Shown here in pieces: positions 7,209-40,348 of a stretch of 40,631 bases of DNA; positions within the stretch are counted from its first letter, which is position 1, and each line of letters starts with the position of its first letter. The DNA is taken from contig CAVZJN010000024.1 of the NCBI GenBank assembly GCA_963775585.1, forward strand, positions 1 through 40,631. Reading direction: 5' to 3'. Position numbers and translations under genes: made by a program. This DNA is from an uncultured Chloroflexia bacterium (GTDB lineage: Bacteria > Chloroflexota > Ktedonobacteria > Ktedonobacterales > Ktedonobacteraceae). The notes beneath the pieces were generated by a model that saw only the letters and a list, made by a program, of their open reading frames with translations, was not told where the DNA came from and did no database searches.

Positions 7209-8222
7209 ATGGTATCAGCAACACTTAGCGAGAACGTTGTTGTCATCACCGGTGTTCGTTTTCGTCCTGCCGGACGTATTTATTACTTTGACCCACAGGG
7301 ACAGTCGTATAACACAGGCCAATTTGTAATTGTTGAGACTGTGCGAGGGACAGAAGCCGGACGCGTAGTTATTGCGTCGAAGAAGATGGCTGAGAAGGAC
7401 CTCAGTGATCCGCTCAAGCCGGTATTGCGCCTGGCTACCGAAGACGAATTGCGTTTGATGCTCTCGTTCAAGAGCAAAGAGAAGGAGGCCCTTGTTAAGT
7501 GTGCAGAGCGGGTGACACAACACGCGCTGCCCATGAAGCTGGTAGAGGCCGAATACACCTTTGATGGCAGCCGTCTGACCTTTTATTTTACGGCTGATGA
7601 ACGAGTTGACTTTCGCGCGCTGGTGCGTGACCTGGCGGCGGCCTTTCGTACGCGTATCGAGCTGCGCCAGATCGGGGCACGCGACCAGGCCAAGCTGCAA
7701 GGAGGGCTGGGACCATGCGGTAAAACCCTCTGTTGTAGCTCGTGGATTGCTGACTTTGGCGTTATCTCAATCAAGATGGCGAAGGAGCAGGGTTTACCCC
7801 TGAATCCTGCAAAGATCTCGGGGGTCTGCGGCCGCCTGTTATGTTGTCTCTCCTATGAGAACGACAACTACATCCAGGCGAAGCAATCGATGCCACAGAT
7901 TGGCACGATGCTCAACACGCCCAGCGGCCCTGGGAAAGTGGTCTCGGTCAATGTACCGCAGGAGTCGGTCGAGGTCATGCTGGAGAGCGGCGTCACTATC
8001 CAGATACCGGTAAACCAATCCTCGGGGCCAGTAGCGCAGCTTGTAGAGCAAAAAATCGAGAGCAAGGGTGGCTGCGGGAGTTGTGGTCTCAACAAAGGCG
8101 GAGGCTGCGGGAGTGGGGGGAGTGGCTGCAGTTGTGGCAGCGGAGGAGGTGGTTGCGGCAGCGGGAGTTGTGGTACAAAAAGCGGGAGTTGTAGCACATG
8201 CGGCGTAAAAAGAACCATGTAA
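7209..8222 (+). CDS. PSP1 C-terminal domain protein (RicT/YaaT-like) with Cys/Gly-rich C-terminal tail
   Basis: N-terminus VITGVRFRPAGRIYYFDP...VIVETVRGTEAGRV matches YaaT/RicT. The last about 50 aa are (G/S/C) repeats with 12 Cys. Confidence 0.8.
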   Translation: MVSATLSENVVVITGVRFRPAGRIYYFDPQGQSYNTGQFVIVETVRGTEAGRVVIASKKMAEKDLSDPLKPVLRLATEDELRLMLSFKSKEKEALVKCAERVTQHALPMKLVEAEYTFDGSRLTFYFTADERVDFRALVRDLAAAFRTRIELRQIGARDQAKLQGGLGPCGKTLCCSSWIADFGVISIKMAKEQGLPLNPAKISGVCGRLLCCLSYENDNYIQAKQSMPQIGTMLNTPSGPGKVVSVNVPQESVEVMLESGVTIQIPVNQSSGPVAQLVEQKIESKGGCGSCGLNKGGGCGSGGSGCSCGSGGGGCGSGSCGTKSGSCSTCGVKRTM

Positions 8223-8282
8223 TACGCACCAGGTTAAACCAAAAACCAGGGATCGAAATCACCATGCTACACCAGGCTCGTC

Positions 8283-8325
8283 TATAGGAGGGGCGACCCT
8301 AGCGATCGCCCTGAAGCCCTGGAGC
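8283..8325. repeat. intergenic GC-hairpin repeat element, copy 1 (TATAGGAGGGGCGACCCTAGCGATCGCCCTGA...CCCTGGAG)
   Basis: 28/32 identity over the core with 21701-21732. Forms a GGGCGAc/gTCGCCC hairpin. Sits between a gene stop at 8222 and a start at 8356. Confidence 0.6.
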
Positions 8326-9957: not shown

Positions 9958-9968
9958 CATTGCATTCA

Positions 9969-10019
9969 TAAACGAGATGAGATCCTGTCGATATGTTCGA
10001 CAGGGTCTCATCTCGTTTA
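9969..10019. repeat. 22-bp-arm near-perfect inverted repeat (one G-U position), 7-nt loop, between convergent genes
   Basis: TAAACGAGATGAGATCCTGTCG / CGACAGGGTCTCATCTCGTTTA. No U-tract on either strand. A second 7-bp hairpin CGAAAAA/TTTTTCG follows at 10021-10047. Confidence 0.7.
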
Positions 10020-10030
10020 CGAAAAAACGA

Positions 10031-15125: not shown

Positions 15126-15664
15126 TTTCAGAACAGGCGAAACAACGTATGCGTGACCTGGCAGATCGCTATCCTGTCGCGCGTTCAGCAGTGATGCCCG
15201 CACTCTATATAGCACAACAAGAAGAGGGCTACATTACCCAGGCCGCCCTGGAGGCAGTAGCCGAAGCAATTGGCTTGACCGTCGATGATGTTGAAAGCGT
15301 GGCTACTTTTTATACCATGTACTACCAGCAGCCTCCCGGAAAAAAGGTCATCAAGGTGTGTACCAGCATTTCATGCTATCTACGCAACTGCGACGCGCTG
15401 GTCGATCACTTCGAACAACGACTGGGCATCAAACGCGGCGAGACAACTGCCGATAGGAATTATACGTTGATGACGGCAGAATGCCTGGCCTCCTGCGGCA
15501 CCGCACCGGTCATCCAGGTCAATGACGAGTTTGTCGAGAATGTCACGCCGGAGATGGCCGATGCGCTGGTCGATGAGTGGGAGAGAGAATTGCATGCGAA
15601 TGTAGGGACGCAATTTATTACGTCTTCCAGCGACCAGGAGATATCGGTGCCACGAGCGCAATAA
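15122..15664 (+). CDS. nuoE: NADH-quinone oxidoreductase subunit E (24-kDa, 2Fe-2S)
   Basis: CxxxxC...CxxxC thioredoxin-like 2Fe-2S motif (CTSISC...CLASCG). ATGA overlap with nuoD. Confidence 0.9.
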   Translation: MISEQAKQRMRDLADRYPVARSAVMPALYIAQQEEGYITQAALEAVAEAIGLTVDDVESVATFYTMYYQQPPGKKVIKVCTSISCYLRNCDALVDHFEQRLGIKRGETTADRNYTLMTAECLASCGTAPVIQVNDEFVENVTPEMADALVDEWERELHANVGTQFITSSSDQEISVPRAQ

Positions 15665-15718
15665 CCCAACAATCAATACATTGCGTCCCTACGGGCAAAT
15701 CCAAAGGACTGATAGAAT

Positions 15719-16996
15719 ATGCCGGAACTTATCATTACAAAAGATATAGATGCTCCAGGTTTGGATACGCTGGAAGGGTATCGCCAGCATGGCGGTTATG
15801 AAAGCCTGGCAAAGGCACTCAAGGAATACCAACCTGATGACATCGTCGAGTTGGTGAAAAAATCAGGCTTGCGTGGACGTGGAGGCGCGGGCTTCCCGAC
15901 AGGTATGAAGTGGGGATTTCTTGCGAAAAGCCAGCCGCGTTACCTCTGCTGCAATAGTGACGAGAGCGAGCCGGGCACCTTCAAAGACCGCATGTTGATG
16001 GAGAAAAATCCGCACCAGTTGATCGAGGGGGTCATCATCACCAGCTATGCTTGTCGCGTCTCGATCGCCTTTATCTATGTGCGCGGCGAACTGGCTTTAG
16101 CTGGTCAGCAGATTGAACGAGCCATTGAAGAAGCGTATGCCGCGGGCCTGATTGGGAAAAATATTTTGGGCAGTGGCTATGACCTGGAAGTCATTATGCA
16201 TCGTGGCGCTGGCGCCTATATTTGTGGTGAAGAAAGCGCGTTGATGGAGTCATTGGAGGGACGGCGGGGGTATCCACGCTTAAAGCCGCCCTTCCCGGCG
16301 GTAATTGGTTTGTATGGCGGCCCTACCGTGATTAACAACTGTGAGACGCTCTCGACCATTCCAGCCATTATCAAGAATGGGGCGGACTGGTATACCTCAT
16401 TCGGAACGGAGAAAAGCAAGGGGACGCGCGTCTTCTGCCTGAGCGGGCATGTGAAGAGACCTGGCAATTATGAACTGCCCCTGGGGACCCCGCTGCGCAC
16501 GCTCATCTACGATGAGGAATATGGCGGCGGTATCCTGGATGACAAGCAACTCAAAGCCATCATACCTGGCGGATCATCGACTTACATACTCGGCGCTGAT
16601 AAAGTAGATACGCCGCTAGACTTCGAGGCCATAGCCGCGGCAGGCTCAATGCTTGGCTCAGGCGGCGTGGTTGTCATGCACGAGGATACCTGTATCGTGG
16701 GGGCCGTCCTGCGCATGACCGAATTCTACCGCGACGAGTCGTGTGGCAAATGTACTCCCTGCCGCGAAGGCACGTACTGGATGACAGAAATTTATGAGCG
16801 CCTCGAACATGGACGAGGCAAGGAGAGTGATATCGATCTGCTGCTGGACGTTTGCGATAATATCATCGGTAAATCATTCTGTCCCCTGGGCGATGCAGCC
16901 ACCAGTCCTGTCTCGAGTAGTATCAATTTGTTCCGCGAAGAATACGAATATCACGTCCGTCATGGACGCTGCATGGTAGGAAATCACAATACCTGA
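15719..16996 (+). CDS. nuoF: NADH-quinone oxidoreductase subunit F (51-kDa, FMN/NADH binding)
   Basis: GRGGAGFPTGMKW FMN site and C-terminal 4Fe-4S CGKCTPCREG motif. Confidence 0.95.
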   Translation: MPELIITKDIDAPGLDTLEGYRQHGGYESLAKALKEYQPDDIVELVKKSGLRGRGGAGFPTGMKWGFLAKSQPRYLCCNSDESEPGTFKDRMLMEKNPHQLIEGVIITSYACRVSIAFIYVRGELALAGQQIERAIEEAYAAGLIGKNILGSGYDLEVIMHRGAGAYICGEESALMESLEGRRGYPRLKPPFPAVIGLYGGPTVINNCETLSTIPAIIKNGADWYTSFGTEKSKGTRVFCLSGHVKRPGNYELPLGTPLRTLIYDEEYGGGILDDKQLKAIIPGGSSTYILGADKVDTPLDFEAIAAAGSMLGSGGVVVMHEDTCIVGAVLRMTEFYRDESCGKCTPCREGTYWMTEIYERLEHGRGKESDIDLLLDVCDNIIGKSFCPLGDAATSPVSSSINLFREEYEYHVRHGRCMVGNHNT

Positions 16997-17017
16997 TGAA
17001 ACGGTATATTTGAAAGC

Positions 17018-17064
17018 CATCCCTGCAACGACGCTATCGCGTCTACTTTCAGTCAGCAGGGATG
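17018..17064 (+). repeat. structured intercistronic RNA element, copy A (outer 9-bp stem CATCCCTGC/GCAGGGATG enclosing conserved AAC-GACGCTATCGCGTC-TA...TCA)
   Basis: Same architecture and 20/21-nt conserved core as 22119-22166, with a different but compensatory outer stem. Confidence 0.6.
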
Positions 17065-17079
17065 CAAGGAAATAAATAT

Positions 17080-19260
17080 ATGCCAGAAGAGAAAAAAGAC
17101 GGGCGCAATGAATTGAGCCCCTACGTACACCTGACAATAGACGACATTCCCGTCGCTGTTCCTGCTGGAACGCTGGTCTGGGCGGCAGCGCAACAGGCGG
17201 GAATAGAGATTCCCATCTATTGCTACCACCCCAAAATGCCGCCGCTGGGCGCCTGCCGCATGTGCTTTGTTGAGATCGAGAAATTGCCCAAGCCACCTCA
17301 GACAGCCTGCACCACTCCGGTTAGTGAAGGCATGATCGTGCATACAAAGACGGAGAAGGTACTCAAAGCGCGCAGGGGCACACTGGAATTTCTCCTCATC
17401 AATCACCCCCTCGATTGTCCCATCTGCGATAAAGGAGGGGAGTGCGATCTGCAAGACTTCACCTTGCGCCATGGCCCTGGCGGCACCCGCTTCGACCAAC
17501 CCAAACGCCACTTTCTGAAGCCTATACCGGTCAGTGATAGGGTGATGCTTGATCGCGAACGCTGTATTTTGTGCCAACGTTGTACGCGCTTCAGTTCGGA
17601 GATCTCCATGGACAACGGGCTGGTAATGATCTCGCGTGGCTATAAGATGGAAGTCGGGACGGCTCCCGATCACGCCTTTGACTCAATATTTTCTGGCAAT
17701 ACCGTCGAGATGTGCCCGGTCGGTGCGCTAACGGCCACGGCCTATCGTTTCAAGTCGCGCCCCTGGGAGTTGAAACGCATTCCCAGCGTTTGCAACAACT
17801 GCAGCGTTGGCTGCAACATACGTATCGATGTACGTGTAGACAAGATCATGCGCAATATGTCACGCGCAAACGATGCCATCGATGATGGCTGGCTCTGTGA
17901 CCGGGGTCGCTGGGGCTTTGAGTTTGTCAATAGTCCGCAGCGCCTGCGCACACCGATGATTCGGCGCAATGGGCAACTGGTGGCAGTGACATGGGAACAG
18001 GCCTTTTATACCATCGCATTACGCCTGGGAGAGATCACCAAAAAGCATGGGGCCAGCGCGGTTGGCGGCATTGGCTCGACCCGCACCACCAATGAAGAGG
18101 CGTACCTCTTCCAAAAGCTGCTCAGACAGGTTATCGGCACACCGCACGTCGATCATCATCATGGCCACTTCCCTACCACCCACGCTCCACGCGACAGCAT
18201 GACCGGGAAACCATGGATGATGACTAATAGCATCGCGGAGATCGAGCAGGCATCTCACATCGTGCTCATCGCGGCAGACCCCTATCAGCGGCAGCCCATC
18301 CTTGATCTGCGCATCAAGAAGGCCATGAAGGGCGGCGCGAAAATCTATATCGTCAACGCCAATCAGACCGAGCTTGACCACTTCGCTGTGCAGAAGATTA
18401 CGCTGCCCCAGCAGGGGGCAGGCGCAGCAGCGAAAGTGCTGCTGAGTACGGTTGTCCGCCAGGAAGAGCTGAAGGCACCAGACGAAGCGCTGAGAGCAAA
18501 AATATTACAGGAGGATGCCCTTATCCGCGACCACGAGGAGTCGCTGGGGACCGAGGTCACTGCTCAACTACGGGGACTCGCCCACGAGATCGCGGAAGCC
18601 AGGGGAGCGATCATCCTGTACGACGAAATGGCGACACTTGAGCCTGGCTGCGAAGACCTGGCAACTGACCTCCAGGCCCTGGCGGTTGTCACCGGCAACA
18701 TTGATCGTCCCGGCGCCGGTGTTGGGCCGCTCTTTGAGGATGCCAACTCGCTTGGCGCACGCGATATGGGTCTTTTGCCTGACGCTCTGCCCGGCTATAA
18801 ACCAGCCGAAGAGGTCGGTATGACGTACGCCGAGATGTTGAGCAGCCCGCAGATCAAAGCGCTGTATGTGATGGGAGCCAATCCCGCGCGACATGTAGAG
18901 AAGCTACCTGGCACCCTGGAATTGCTGATTGTACAAGACATTATGCTGACTGAGACGGCCCAGCAGGCCGATGTCGTACTGCCAGCCGTCACCTTCGCGG
19001 AAAAAGATGGCAGCATGACCAACATCGACCACCATGTGCAGGCTATTCGACAGGCGTTACGGCCCCTGCCAGGAACAAAAGCCGACTGGGAGATCATCGT
19101 CGAGATAGCCAGGCATATGGGTATTCGGTGGAGTTATGCCAGTCCAAAAGCAATATTATTAGAGATTGCTGAAGAGAATCCTTTCTATACAGGTTTAGAC
19201 TGGGAAGAACTGGGGGCACAGGGTGTGCGCACCCAGGAGCAGGAGGTGGCGCGTGCTTGA
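17080..19260 (+). CDS. nuoG: NADH-quinone oxidoreductase subunit G (75-kDa, Fe-S and molybdopterin-like domain)
   Basis: N-terminal 2Fe-2S and 4Fe-4S cysteine motifs ([32 protein letters not shown]). Start chosen at ATG 17080, with AAGGA RBS 9 nt upstream. ATG 17062 of the ORF track lies inside the upstream stem. Confidence 0.9.
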
Positions 19261-20524: not shown

Positions 20525-21166
20525 ATGTCTTTTGACATAATCAAAGGGATGGCAACAACCCTTAAAAATATGGGCAAAAAGCCAACCACCGTCTCGTATC
20601 CAGAAGAGGAACGCGAGCTTCCGCCGCGCTTCCGCGGTCGCCATGTGCTGCACCGTTACGAAAATGGCCTGGAACGCTGCGTCGGTTGCTTTCTCTGCGC
20701 GGGCGCCTGTCCAGCTGACGCGATCTATATCGAAGCCGACGAAAATAGCGAAGAGACCCGCGTCTCACCTGGCGAACGTTACGCGAAAGTCTTCGATGTC
20801 AATTTATTGCGCTGTATCTTCTGCGGCTACTGCCAGGCAGCATGTCCCACCGGAGCTATCACGCTGGAACACGAGTATAAACTGGCCGCTTTCTATCCAG
20901 AAGATATGGTCTACCATAAAGAGCAACTGCTTGAGCCCAAAGGGCAGTCCACTGTCGGCTCGAATACTGTCTGGACCGACCCGGCTCCCACGGAGGCAGC
21001 GCAACCCGTACCACAGGCGGCCAAAGTGTTTGACGGTGCGCAGGCCAGCGCCGCCGCCGTCGGCCTGGGTGACCTGCGCACCGAGGAGGAAGTCTTGCTC
21101 ACCAACGAGGAACAGGACGAAGATAGGAGAAAGTTGGCAAGCGGAAAGGACTGGCAGAAACGATGA
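20525..21166 (+). CDS. nuoI: NADH-quinone oxidoreductase subunit I (2x[4Fe-4S]) with P/A/E-rich C-terminal extension
   Basis: CVGCFLCAGACP and CIFCGYCQAACP ferredoxin motifs. AGGAG RBS. Confidence 0.9.
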   Translation: MSFDIIKGMATTLKNMGKKPTTVSYPEEERELPPRFRGRHVLHRYENGLERCVGCFLCAGACPADAIYIEADENSEETRVSPGERYAKVFDVNLLRCIFCGYCQAACPTGAITLEHEYKLAAFYPEDMVYHKEQLLEPKGQSTVGSNTVWTDPAPTEAAQPVPQAAKVFDGAQASAAAVGLGDLRTEEEVLLTNEEQDEDRRKLASGKDWQKR

Positions 21167-21694
21167 CAGGAGTGCAAATTTCATTCTTTGTGCTGGCCGT
21201 AGCCGCTGTGGCATCAGCACTCGGCGTGATTATCTTTAAGAATGCCGTCCACTGCGCATTGAGCCTCATTCTGACACTGCTCTTCCTGGCGCTCTTTTAC
21301 CTGCAACTGGGGGCGATGTTTATCTCCATTGTGCAAGTCCTGATCTATGCAGGTGCAATCATGGTCTTATTCCTCTTTGTGGTCACCATGCTCGCTTCGG
21401 AAGCCGCACGATACAGAATTGGCCGATCGTATCCCATGGCAGCGCTGGGTCGCGGTGGTACTGGGACTGACATTGGTTGGCACATTGAGTTACCTGCTCT
21501 TTACGGGAACAGCCATCGATAGCGGACCAAAGGCAACGGCTGCGAATAGCCTCTCTCATGTAGTGAATACACAGGGCAACACAGAAGCCTTTGGCCAGGC
21601 CCTTTTCCACGGTTTCGTCTTTCCCTTTGAGGTGACAAGCCTGCTGATTATCGTAGCGATCCTTGGCGCGATGGTGCTGGGCAGGAAAGCGTAA
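21163..21694 (+). pseudogene. nuoJ: NADH-quinone oxidoreductase subunit J, reading frame interrupted by a +1 frameshift near 21400-21412 (genuine or sequencing error)
   Basis: The N-terminal half (IVQVLIYAGAIMVLFLFVVTML) is in frame 1 from 21163. The C-terminal half (RIPWQRWVAVVLGL...FEVTSLLIIVAILGAMVLGRKA) is in frame 2, ending at 21694. Together they give a normal-length NuoJ. Confidence 0.6.
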
Positions 21695-21700
21695 ACCGTG

Positions 21701-21753
21701 TATAGTAGGGGCGACCCTTGCGGTCGCCCTGGTTCTGGGCGGTCGCCCTGGAG
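21701..21753. repeat. intergenic GC-hairpin repeat element, copy 2 (TATAGTAGGGGCGACCCTTGCGGTCGCCCTGG...GGTCGCCCTGGAG)
   Basis: 28/32 identity with 8283-8314. Perfect 8-bp stem GGGCGACC/GGTCGCCC. Lies between the nuoJ stop and the nuoK start. Confidence 0.6.
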
Positions 21754-21759
21754 GTGTCT

Positions 21760-22059
21760 ATGCCATTATCAGCATATCTCATAGTGAGCGCTATTATTTT
21801 TACGATCGGCGTCACCGGCGTGCTCATTCGACGCAATCCGCTCATTATTTTTATGTCCATTGAATTGATGTTAAATGCGGTCAATTTATCGTTTGTGGCC
21901 ATCTCAAGCTACCTCGACTCGGCGGACGGGCAAATGTTTGTCTTTATCGTGCTGACGGTCGCAGCCGCGGAGGTTGTTGTTGGCCTCGCTATTATCGTCT
22001 CCATCTTCCGCACCCGCCGTAATATTGATGTTGACGACATGAATTTGTTACGAGGATAG
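21760..22059 (+). CDS. nuoK: NADH-quinone oxidoreductase subunit K
   Basis: About 100-aa, 3-TM protein with the [22 protein letters not shown] signature. Start chosen at ATG 21760, with GGAGGT RBS 5 nt upstream. The ORF track begins at 21718. Confidence 0.85.
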
Positions 22060-22118
22060 TAGTGTAACGTAGCGCTGACGCTTCTTGAAAGACATGCTGC
22101 AACGGCGCTGAACTTAGA

Positions 22119-22166
22119 CAGATTGCCAACGACGCTAGCGCGTCTAGCTAGCGCTCAGGCAATCTG
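22119..22166 (+). repeat. structured intercistronic RNA element, copy B (outer stem CAGATTGCC/GGCAATCTG enclosing AAC-GACGCTAGCGCGTC-TA...TCA), within a highly structured 156-nt nuoK-nuoL spacer
   Basis: See copy A. An additional long-range pairing CATGCTGC (22097-22104) / GCAGCATG (22199-22206) flanks it. Confidence 0.6.
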
Positions 22167-22215
22167 CAAGGAGTGCGCGCGCCTACGCTTCGCGTCAGCA
22201 GCATGAAAGGAATAT

Positions 22216-24204
22216 ATGACAAATTTAACGGTATTGGCGCTGCTAGCGCCACTGCTTGGGTTCGTGATCCTCGGTGTGGCTGGCAGCGCTCTGACAAACA
22301 GGGCTATAATCACTGTAGCGTGGGGTGGCTGTGGCCTCGCTTTTCTTTTTGCGACTATCAGCTTCTTCTCGATGCTTGGTACGCCTGTTGCGGCACGAAC
22401 CAGTGACCAGGTATTCTATACCTGGGTCTCCTCTGGCAACTTTCAACTGAGCTTTGGCTTGCTCCTTGATCCCTTATCGGCCACAATGTTGATGATTGTC
22501 ACGGGCGTAGGACTCTTGATCCATATCTATTCAGCAGGATATATGAAAGATGATCCTGGCTTCTGGCGCTTCTTCTCCTACATGAACTTCTTTATTTTTG
22601 CTATGGTTCTGCTGGTAAGCGCGGATAATTTTCTCTTCCTGCTGGTCGGTTGGGGCCTGGTTGGCCTGGCCTCATTCCTCTTGATTGGTTTCTGGTATCG
22701 CCGGCCCAGAGCGGTCGCGGCGGCCCAAAAAGCCCTGGTCATCAACATCATAGGTGACTTTGGCTTCATGATCGCTATTTTCCTTATCTTCAAAGAGTAT
22801 GGCGTACTGAACTTCTACAATAACGCCAGCAGTATTGGTGTCTTTTCCATTCTTAGCCCTACAAGTTCCGGGACCATGCTACAGACAATCATCGCCCTGT
22901 GCCTCTTTATCGCCTGTGCGGCGAAATCGGCACAGTTGCCACTCTATATGTGGCTGCCAGATGCTATGGAGGGCCCCACTCCTGTCAGTGCTCTCATCCA
23001 CGCGGCAACCATGGTAACAGCCGGTGTTTACCTGGTTGCGCGCGCACATCCGCTCTTTGAACTGTCTCCAACAGCATTAACCATCATAGCGCTGATTGGG
23101 GGATTGACCGCGATCTTCGCGGCTAGCATCGCCATCTTCCAACTGGATATCAAGCGCGTGCTGGCTTATTCGACCATCAGCCAGCTGGGCTATATGTTTA
23201 TGGCCGAGGGTGTGCATAATTATACTGCTGGTATCTTCCACCTCACGACTCATGCCTACTTCAAAGCGCTGCTCTTCCTTTGCGCGGGCGCCGTCATCCA
23301 CGCCCTTGACGGAGAACAAGATATGCGCCAGATGGGCGGGTTGAGAGATAAACTTAAGATCACCTTCTGGACTTTTTTGCTGGCTGCTCTGGCGATTAGC
23401 GGCATACCTCCGCTCTCCGGCTTCTGGAGTAAGGATGAAATTCTCAGCTCATTACTGGCGCAGGCAACGGTCAATAATCAACCCCTGTCATACGTGCTCT
23501 GGGGTATCGGCATCATAACGGCAGGCCTCACAGCATTCTACATATTCCGCCTCTTCTACGGCATCTTTCTGGGAGATTATCGTGGCACAGGCCAGTCCAG
23601 CCATGCGCAAGACGAGGATGAAGAAGAGCCGTCGCGGCATACAGGACGCTTGAGGATTCACGAAGCTCCAGCCGTCATGACCGTACCGCTCATTATTTTA
23701 GCGTTCCTCTCCTGTGTGGGCGGCCTGGTTGGCTCGTTTGCCATCATTGGATTCCCCCAGTGGGATCCGATCGGGAATTTCCTCGCGCCAGTCTTCGCCG
23801 ATGTGCATACCATGGCAACGGCTTCACTCGGCGTCCAGTGGACCTCAACAGTCTTGAGCGTTGGCATCGGTCTGCTTGGTATCCTGGCAGCCTGGAGAAT
23901 ATACGGTCGCGGCTTCCAATACAAAGAGAACGATAACCAGCTCTACCAGCTGGTACTGCATAAGTACTACGTTGATGAAATATTGGACGCGGTGATTGTT
24001 CAGCCGATTCTCTGGTTTGGGCGCACCGCAACACGCCTTCTTGAAGGCGACCTGCTCGATGCCGGAGGACGGGCCGTAGCCGGGGGACTGCGAGGAATCA
24101 GTGCAGGCTTGCGCCGCCTGCAAACGGGCTACGTGCGTAACTATGCCCTGGCAATTCTGATTGGCGTGTTGCTCATTATTTTGTACTATGCAGTGAGGGG
24201 GTAA
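22216..24204 (+). CDS. nuoL: NADH-quinone oxidoreductase subunit L
   Basis: 662-aa antiporter-like subunit with the long C-terminal amphipathic helix region. Confidence 0.9.
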   Translation: MTNLTVLALLAPLLGFVILGVAGSALTNRAIITVAWGGCGLAFLFATISFFSMLGTPVAARTSDQVFYTWVSSGNFQLSFGLLLDPLSATMLMIVTGVGLLIHIYSAGYMKDDPGFWRFFSYMNFFIFAMVLLVSADNFLFLLVGWGLVGLASFLLIGFWYRRPRAVAAAQKALVINIIGDFGFMIAIFLIFKEYGVLNFYNNASSIGVFSILSPTSSGTMLQTIIALCLFIACAAKSAQLPLYMWLPDAMEGPTPVSALIHAATMVTAGVYLVARAHPLFELSPTALTIIALIGGLTAIFAASIAIFQLDIKRVLAYSTISQLGYMFMAEGVHNYTAGIFHLTTHAYFKALLFLCAGAVIHALDGEQDMRQMGGLRDKLKITFWTFLLAALAISGIPPLSGFWSKDEILSSLLAQATVNNQPLSYVLWGIGIITAGLTAFYIFRLFYGIFLGDYRGTGQSSHAQDEDEEEPSRHTGRLRIHEAPAVMTVPLIILAFLSCVGGLVGSFAIIGFPQWDPIGNFLAPVFADVHTMATASLGVQWTSTVLSVGIGLLGILAAWRIYGRGFQYKENDNQLYQLVLHKYYVDEILDAVIVQPILWFGRTATRLLEGDLLDAGGRAVAGGLRGISAGLRRLQTGYVRNYALAILIGVLLIILYYAVRG

Positions 24205-25764: not shown

Positions 25765-25770
25765 ACCCCG

Positions 25771-25830
25771 CCTACGGCGGTCCCTCCGATAAATCGGGGG
25801 CCTACAGTAGACCCTCGATATATCGAGGGG
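25771..25830. repeat. tandem duplication of a 30-nt hairpin-containing unit in the nuoM-nuoN spacer
   Basis: Unit 1 is CCTACGGCGGTCCCTCCGATAAATCGGGGG. Unit 2 is CCTACAGTAGACCCTCGATATATCGAGGGG. Each folds into a 7-8-bp hairpin. Confidence 0.6.
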
Positions 25831-25852
25831 CGAGCGAAGCGAGGTATTATCT

Positions 25853-40254: not shown

Positions 40255-40270
40255 TAACATCATCCTCTCT

Positions 40271-40348
40271 GTGTCGAGTGGACGGGTCGCGGTGCACCGC
40301 GACCCGTCCACTCGACACATCATACTTCTTGGCGAGCGACTTGTCGCG
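40271..40348. repeat. composite element, second copy in inverted orientation: perfect 48-nt palindrome (24-bp arms, 40271-40318), 14-nt spacer, motif CGAGCGACTTGTCGCG (40333-40348)
   Basis: The motif is the reverse complement of CGCGACAAGTCGCTCG, 15/16 identical to 1055-1070. The palindrome arms are exact reverse complements of each other. Confidence 0.8.

Follow-up and report, generated by a model that had tools for sequence, protein, structure and literature searches.

A three-way-junction repeat in the nuo operon of a Ktedonobacteraceae bacterium and its probable identity as a mobile palindromic element

Introduction

Does a folded motif that recurs between the genes of one operon serve that operon, or does it belong to a wider population of repeats that has reached the operon by chance? 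The question is raised by a 40,631-nt stretch of Ktedonobacteraceae DNA (hereafter the window), in which a sequence-only reading had noted two short copies of one structured motif, in the nuoF-nuoG and nuoK-nuoL spacers. The outer stems of the two copies were seen to keep their complementarity while differing in sequence, and this was taken as the mark of a selected RNA structure that might direct processing of the nuo mRNA, set the stoichiometry of its segments, or couple the translation of neighboring genes. The genomes of Ktedonobacteria are large and rich in repeats, and they have been little studied. Here, the two copies are dissected and a third is described, the family to which they belong is followed through related genomes, and the explanations for its presence in nuo are weighed against one another.

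Three copies in two nuo spacers

By their Pfam domains, the genes around the copies are nuoE, F, G, K and L. Those adjoining the two spacers are nuoF (15719..16996; Complex1_51K and NADH_4Fe-4S), nuoG (17080..19260; Fer2_4, NADH-G_4Fe-4S_3 and Molybdopterin), nuoK (21718..22059, with the real start probably lying later; Oxidored_q2) and nuoL (22216..24204; Proton_antipo_N and Proton_antipo_M). These genes, and all three copies with their parts, are on the plus strand.

Copy A (17018..17064) scores 76 bits against the covariance model, with an E of 1e-19. Its outer stem, P1, is formed by 17018-17026 paired with 17056-17064, and the junction bases AAC (17027-17029), TA (17044-17045) and TCA (17053-17055) set this stem apart from an inner hairpin, P2 (GACGC-TATC-GCGTC, 17030-17043), and a small hairpin, P3 (CTTTCAG, 17046-17052). 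The core is preceded by the flank TTGAAAGC (17010..17017), of a TTGAAA(K)N type that recurs in many copies, and is followed by CAAGGAA (17065..17071), an instance of the MAAGGA that stands after the 3′ arm of P1 (P1′) in most copies. Copy B (22119..22166; 69 bits) is built in the same way, from P1 (22119-22127 paired with 22158-22166), AAC (22128-22130), P2 (22131-22144), TA (22145-22146), P3 (GCTAGCGC, 22147-22154) and TCA (22155-22157). Its 5′ flank is TGAACTTAGA (22109..22118), of the same type as the TGAACTAAGC that stands before the nested copy at locus L044, and its 3′ flank is CAAGGAG (22167..22173).

The sequence-only reading had placed and transcribed copies A and B correctly, and the two are indeed homologous members of one structured family. 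It was also right that both outer stems are perfect 9-bp helices, although to call them completely different slightly overstates the case: six of the nine pairs differ on both sides, while the first two pairs and the last are held in common. The inner hairpin and junction stand as described, whereas the 12-13 nt that had been taken for a 3′ strand fold upon themselves as P3, so that the motif is a three-way junction and not a hairpin with an internal loop. Besides P3, the earlier account had missed the conserved flanks TTGAAAG-N (5′) and MAAGGA (3′) and a further copy, C.

Copy C (22093..22205) was found by descriptor scans (stem-AAC...TCA-stem) and encloses copy B, which interrupts it in the P2 loop. 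Its P1 arms are CATGCTGC (22093-22100) and GCAGCATG (22198-22205), its junction bases are AAC (22101-22103), TA (22184-22185) and TCA (22195-22197), its P2 arms are GGCGC (22104-22108) and GCGCC (22179-22183), and its P3 is CGCTTCGCG (22186-22194). The flanks are TTGAAAGA (22085..22092) and AAAGGAA (22206..22212). The nested arrangement is reproduced by the minimum-energy fold of the whole nuoK-nuoL spacer, the 156 nt (22060-22215) in which copy B had been reported to lie.

The 40.6-kb window has exactly two occurrences of the 19-nt core AACGACGCTAKCGCGTCTA, compared with 0.01 expected from shuffles, and a scan of the window with covariance model R1, filters off, returned no canonical copies besides A and B; copy C was missed by this model because of its large insert. 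Copy A folds at -21.8 kcal/mol (z = -3.4), with P1, P2 and P3 all present in the minimum-energy structure, and copy B at -30.5 kcal/mol (z = -4.2). The antisense strands of these two copies fold equally stably. Rfam 15 gave no hits across the window at gathering thresholds, and under permissive settings the best match in the spacers reached E = 0.12 and 17.9 bits, where the gathering score is 44.5. None of the papers searched described a Ktedonobacteria repeat family or the core sequence, and on this basis the family is previously undescribed.

A family with a constant junction and free stems

The family was collected by scanning the 19-nt core against one genome per species (GTDB representatives); genes at the resulting loci were called from ORFs, with no gene finder. 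The scan gave 61 loci, 59 of which fall in 21 MAGs named as Ktedonobacterales, Ktedonobacteraceae, Dictyobacter or 'Chloroflexia', and each of these genomes has between 1 and 12 copies of the exact core. The two others, in Rothia and Corynebacterium, are without every other feature of the element and were set aside as chance matches. Further copies with covarying stems, for which the sequence-only reading had suggested a search, do therefore exist. The exact P2 core served for ascertainment, which biases both these copy numbers and the apparent invariance of P2; in fact, P2 is invariant in the core-scan sample only because the search required it. Variants recovered from model or descriptor matches and from outer nested copies keep their pairing (GGAC/GTCC, GCGC/GCGC, GCTGC/GCAGC, GGCGC/GCGCC, GACAC/GTGTC and GAAGC/GCTTC).

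Aligned copies show a unit of about 65-70 nt including flanks, with a core of about 47 nt, in the order 5′ flank, P1, AAC, P2, UA, P3, UCA, P1′ and MAAGGAR. The 5′ flanks are of three types, TTGAAAKN, CTTATTC and GGCACNTAYC. P1 is 6-11 bp long and free in sequence, P2 is usually GACGC-UANC-GCGUC, and P3 is a variable mini-hairpin of 2-5 bp, mostly with a UUC or UAC triloop. The constant part is the junction, which reads C-AAC-G, C-UA and UCA-G.

The covariation of P1 is genuine, as had been proposed. Among 55 distinct copies, all nine pairs change on both sides, and 96% of P1 cells are paired, a share that falls to 68% after column shuffling and to 29-41% if the partner strand is slid; these values describe copies with at least 7 of 9 positions paired, a threshold at which 8 of 63 were dropped. 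The covariation score for the same copies is 0.63 versus 0.12. RNAalifold found both P1 and P2 unaided. P3 behaves similarly: its 37 distinct sequences form hairpins with 2.78 closing pairs on average, whereas shuffling gives 0.64, with a maximum of 1.19 across 1000 shuffles. A structure descriptor made 50 matches in the loci and none in reversed-sequence controls.

The level at which this pairing is selected is another matter. Mismatches in P1 occur in roughly 9 of 63 copies and are transitions on both strands, with 7 U-G against 13 C-A plus A-C. G-U is thus not in excess over A-C, and the covariation, which the sequence-only reading had attributed to a selected RNA, does not speak for selection at that level rather than on DNA. 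Moreover, the mismatches show no strand preference, so that P1 is Watson-Crick on both strands, as expected of palindromy in DNA and not of an RNA helix. The flanks do not extend the fold: 14-nt flanks outside P1 pair at -3.6 kcal/mol with their own partner, at -4.1 when cross-paired and at -3.6 when shuffled, and an outer helix, a terminal inverted repeat and Shine-Dalgarno/anti-Shine-Dalgarno pairing were all rejected, own-flank energy being no better than in controls.

Placement in spacers, in other copies and in genes

One relative of the window is locus L009, where NuoF is 97% identical to that of the window across the 199 C-terminal residues (227-425) present on the contig and NuoG is 91% identical over its full length. 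Even here the nuoF-G copy is antisense and lies at a position different from that of copy A. Searches by tblastn with the window's Nuo proteins placed the element elsewhere again in other species: in the nuoE-F region of L045, where it is in frame in the C-terminal tail of NuoE, in nuoJ-K of L033 and in nuoM-N of L012. Conversely, nuoF-G of L045 is without a copy, and the nuoK-nuoL spacer is only about 10 nt long in L012 and L033.

Another 16 orthologous nuoF-G junctions were obtained by scanning metagenomes for the conserved nuoG start. Fifteen of these carry no element, being either empty or occupied by GTAG-type REP hairpins. The sixteenth, on metagenome contig L066, contains copy A with an unchanged P1, yet an insert of about 120 nt (357-480) divides the P2 loop behind GACGC-TA; this insert includes four tandem 18-nt GGTTGACCGCCAGGGTCA units and a CCCTAC tag. 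It is a REP array that has entered the three-way-junction element. The flanks of L066 are identical to those of the window, and the contig therefore derives from the same or a very close strain. Model R1 gave no hits in the 16 metagenomic nuo loci (124 kb), which indicates that the density of copies is uneven between lineages.

Orientation was scored between co-directional ORF pairs, since divergent and convergent pairs are, by symmetry, uninformative. There were 14 sense and 10 antisense copies, or 14:13 on a looser count; the ratio becomes about 20:10 in favor of sense if copies lying under read-through ORF calls are counted as sense copies in 5′ untranslated regions.

Copies are nested not only in the window but also at L002, L006, L024, L032 and L034, and L010 has a tandem pair. 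Nesting is always in an unpaired part of the host copy, either after the P2 loop (L002, L006, L034 and the window) or between P2 and P3 (L024, L028 and L044). The P1 subfamily of copy C, together with its flanks, recurs at an unrelated, non-nuo site of another species (L039). Filled and empty sites could be compared for nuoF-G of the window, L009 and L045, for the nuoE tail of L045 and for nested copies, and the boundaries are ambiguous by 0-2 nt, possibly T or TA.

Copies also lie within coding sequences, where the in-frame ones usually read AAC GAC GCT AGC GCG TCT, or NDASAS. An insert in a Hydantoinase_B protein has 29 residues where the solved homolog 7hk5_A has 3. Other in-frame copies occur in an NRPS condensation domain just before HHxxxDG, in the HisKA helical hairpin of a histidine kinase and in another sensor kinase, and one antisense copy lies in an SbcC/SMC-like coiled-coil ORF. 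This is a dispersed family that inserts in either orientation in intergenic and intercistronic spacers, in the unpaired parts of its own copies and in frame in coding sequence. In light of such insertional behavior, the copies in nuo are incidental insertions.

Ribosome-binding sites of nuoG and nuoL

In relatives that have no sense copy, nuoG is preceded by ACGGTAAAAATATATG. The corresponding ancestral leader in the window has been displaced upstream of the element, by about 60 nt. Similarly, nuoL in L012 and L033 has the Shine-Dalgarno sequence GAGG inside the end of nuoK, and in the window the GAGG of the nuoK end is some 150 nt upstream of the nuoL start. The only well-spaced Shine-Dalgarno-like sequences in the window are then those at the 3′ ends of copies A and C, namely AAGGAA (17066-17071) before nuoG and AAAGGAA (22206-22212) before nuoL, whose ATG is at 22216. 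The sequence-only reading had correctly seen that the element stands immediately upstream of the nuoG ribosome-binding site and that an in-frame ATG (17062-17064) is held in the outer stem of copy A, where it makes up the last three bases of P1′. Its preference for the nuoG start at 17080 was well founded, as this start is the conserved one and tblastn alignments with relatives begin at residue 1.

The arrangement is not peculiar to nuo: among single copies there are about 10 in which a start codon follows P1′ by 12-18 nt, and several outer nested copies show the same use of their 3′ end. The AAGGA at the 3′ end of the element incidentally supplies what are, by spacing and position, the putative ribosome-binding sites of nuoG and nuoL, and these two genes probably now rely on a Shine-Dalgarno sequence borne by the element. 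That of copy A is predicted to be unpaired, while the CAAGGAG of copy B is not used in this way because it lies inside copy C. With its 3′ AAGGA(G), the element delivers a Shine-Dalgarno sequence in place of the displaced one, and this is probably what allows sense insertions between cistrons to be tolerated.

According to the fold models, the elements can be expected to form stable structures in the nuo mRNA, and any effect on its stability or processing would presumably be a by-product. Copies A and B contain no terminator-like site or U-run and no promoter-like site. A role as terminator or attenuator was rejected for lack of a U-run, and TTGAAA as the -35 box of an element-borne promoter for lack of any promoter-like site.

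Other repeats and irregularities in and around the window

Several further repeats were observed. Two GTAG hairpins, at 8279-8313 and at 21697-21731 (continuing to ~21760), are 89% identical, share the form GTAG-GGGCGACC-CTWGC-GRTCGCCC and are canonical REPs of the GTAG type. The second is in the nuoJ-nuoK spacer, which is about 5 nt long in L012, and is followed there by a partial repeat, GGGCGGTCGCCCTGG. The nuoM-nuoN spacer of the window (25765-25852) holds REP-like hairpins with GTAG/CTAC tags (CCCCGCCTACGGCGG..., GGGGGCCTAC and GTAGACCCTCGATATATCGAGGG); in L012 the three-way-junction element is found in this spacer instead of REPs. At 15602-15692, an 18-nt inverted repeat (GTAGGGACGCAATTTATT / AATACATTGCGTCCCTAC; 94% complementary, with 55 nt between the arms) extends from the 3′ end of nuoE into the nuoE-nuoF spacer and has a GTAG tag at both ends, like a REP dimer. 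CCCTAC is the reverse complement of the GTAG tag of the REPs seen in several spacers; CCCTACRG occurs 4 times in the window against 1.7 expected, which is not significant. Six loci (L014, L025, L032, L036, L037 and L047) share a longer repeat that surrounds the element (GGACAYCCGCTGGCACNTACC...element...AAGGAGAAGGGRTGTCCCTACATTTCA), adds an outer stem, GGACACCC/GGGTGTCC, and carries a CCCTAC tag; the element and a GTAG-type REP seem to be combined in it.

Near-perfect palindromes with arms of 25-27 nt and loops of 0-5 nt are present at gene ends (1082-1134, 9965-10023 and 40270-40319) and may be terminators or further repeat families. Three copies of GGTGGCTGCGGGAGTTGTGG, 33 and 54 nt apart, lie at 8067-8173 in the ORF 7209-8222 and form a Gly/Cys-rich coding repeat. 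Finally, a +1 frameshift at ~21400-21410 (GAA GCC GCA C|GAT ACA GAA) splits nuoJ into the overlapping ORFs 21163-21522 and 21347-21694. The gene is in a single frame in L012 and L033, and the split is either a sequencing error or the sign of a pseudogenized or recoded nuoJ.

Relation to known elements

REP elements are assigned to GTAG- and CGTC-tagged families and are recognized as single stem-loops of 20-40 nt with one of these tetranucleotides at one end (Di Nocera et al. 2013, PMC3733652). The present element resembles them as a short, GC-rich palindromic repeat that is lineage-specific, folds as a single strand, is dispersed in spacers in both orientations (59 loci, 21 genomes) and sometimes enters ORFs; GTAG-type REPs even coexist with it in the same nuo spacers. 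Where REPs have one stem-loop, however, the element has a compound three-way junction. Neither tag stands at the foot of its outer stem, where P1 starts with CA or CG, and CGTC appears only internally, at the 3′ end of P2. Furthermore, the outer stem is free and conservation is confined to the junction and the inner hairpin, and copies of the element nest rather than forming head-to-head dimers.

Bacterial MITEs such as Correia/NEMIS, ERIC, RUP and Nezha (reviewed in PMC3184786, PMC2229807 and PMC10969869) offer a second comparison. Like them, the element is a small non-coding insertional repeat of operon spacers that is co-transcribable, folds into long hairpins and can carry a functional motif, here a Shine-Dalgarno sequence. 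Its presence and position vary between relatives at orthologous sites and its copies occupy non-homologous sites, as is characteristic of mobile repeats. Unlike MITEs, it has no terminal inverted repeats conserved in sequence, its flanks are not complementary, and searches for a clear target-site duplication or a parent insertion sequence found neither; in length, the unit is also close to the lower limit for such repeats.

A third likeness is with the palindromic elements of Rickettsia (RPEs), which Ogata and colleagues reportedly described in 2000 as selfish DNA in protein-coding genes. RPE-4 and RPE-6 have been classed as CGTC REPs (PMC3733652). In both systems, palindromic repeats persist as in-frame peptides in conserved proteins and are also found in spacers. 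The present element is nonetheless unrelated in sequence, belongs to another phylum, is shorter (inserts of 16-25 aa) and has the form of a three-way junction. It also recalls the attC sites of integrons, given a folded single strand (presumed for the element), a free stem, a conserved structure and the possibility of a branched top. In attC, however, conservation falls on the paired R′′/R′ boxes at the stem's foot (RYYYAAC/GTTRRRY), whereas here it falls on the unpaired junction bases atop P1, the 3′ counterpart is UCA and not GTT, and no cassette array or integrase context accompanies the element.

Origin of the nuo copies

Together, these observations make it likely that A, B and C are members of a Ktedonobacterales-specific family of non-autonomous mobile palindromic elements of the REP/MITE/RPE kind. 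The nuoK-nuoL spacer would then have grown from about 10 nt to 156 nt by the arrival of copy C, which was subsequently hit by copy B. The element would be moved by a separate enzyme, and its probable recognition form is the folded single strand, since conservation sits in the junction bases and not at the termini and since insertions land in unpaired regions. Complementarity of the stems could be maintained by selection on the fold or by arm-to-arm correction through template switching. The 59 loci and the window yielded no transposase, autonomous parent or clear target-site duplication, nor any split copy flanking 0.2-4 kb (about 0.42 Mb searched, with one in the reversed control). Two features sit uneasily with a mobile repeat of the usual sort: the only inverted repeat, P1, is the part that varies in sequence, unlike in classical MITEs, and conserved unpaired junction bases joined to covarying helices form the pattern of a functional RNA. 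We give some weight, while regarding it as rather unlikely, to the idea that the AAC/UA/UCA junction with its free helices is a functional fold, either as the single-stranded DNA substrate of a mobilizing enzyme that inserts in unpaired loops or as a small active RNA. If this were true, a new mechanism of mobility, and not the decay of an insertion sequence, would lie behind the family, and the Shine-Dalgarno sequence at its end would have to be seen as an adaptation for colonizing operons without polarity.

The pattern of conservation is also what would be expected of a portable cis-acting mRNA module that benefits the host, for example as a 5′ stabilizer, as a translation enhancer, as a standby site for the AAGGA or as the target of a global RNA-binding protein. 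On this view many genes, nuoG and nuoL among them, would have acquired it in their upstream regions. The frequent use of AAGGA(G) after P1′ as a ribosome-binding site, the predicted accessibility of this sequence in copy A and a possible mild sense bias would fit such a module, but cis-regulatory elements are expected in a consistent sense orientation and at conserved orthologous sites. Here, about 40% of the copies between co-directional genes are antisense, among them the nuoF-G copy of L009, others lie in ORFs, orthologous sites are not conserved and copy A itself is disrupted in L066; the stems, too, are without a G-U excess. Such a module is thus improbable. A device specific to nuo, which would set segmental stoichiometry through RNase processing or translational coupling as first proposed, could point to three copies in two nuo spacers, each in sense and each immediately followed by a ribosome-binding site. 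It must be reconciled, however, with a family that is spread through 21 Ktedonobacterales genomes beside unrelated genes and inside ORFs, with a nuo position that differs in every species examined (nuoE-F, nuoF-G, nuoJ-K, nuoK-L or nuoM-N), and with 16 metagenomic nuoF-nuoG junctions of which 15 are without the element and the last is broken by another insertion. Together with the antisense copy of L009, these comparative sequence data largely refute a nuo-specific device, which we now consider extremely unlikely.

Hammerhead-type small ribozymes combine an invariant junction with free helices, and the resemblance invites the proposal that the element is a self-cleaving or retro-mobile RNA that has its active site in AAC/UA/UCA and spreads through an RNA intermediate. 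Insertion into unpaired regions of other copies would suit this proposal, as would the absence of a match to any known Rfam family. Yet the junction has only 8 nucleotides, the stems have no preference for G-U, and persistence in frame within ORFs argues against excision. Read against the hammerhead, twister and pistol consensus, the element shows none of the known ribozyme cores, and identity with these three or with attC was rejected on the junction sequences. A catalytic RNA is accordingly very unlikely. It might finally be supposed that the covariation is non-adaptive, quasi-palindrome (template-switch) correction having preserved P1 and P3 in copies that are neutral relics. Transitions spread over both strands, the P1 mismatches in roughly one copy in seven (~9/63) and the tolerance of both orientations are all as such correction would have them, but it leaves unexplained why the junction bases and P2 are conserved across 21 species while P1 varies. 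As a full explanation we hold it to be highly improbable; template-switch correction is compatible with a mobile element as a sub-mechanism.

Implications

For the annotation of Ktedonobacteria, a mobile palindromic element of this kind has practical consequences, in that it inflates intercistronic spacers, replaces native ribosome-binding sites and adds peptides of 16-25 residues to enzymes. With its covarying stems, it is also easily mistaken for a regulatory RNA, and a general caution follows: covariation between two paralogous copies shows selection or correction for pairing and not a local regulatory role. At the same time, the invariant junction, the free stems and the insertions in unpaired regions make the family a tractable candidate for finding a structure-specific mobilizing enzyme.
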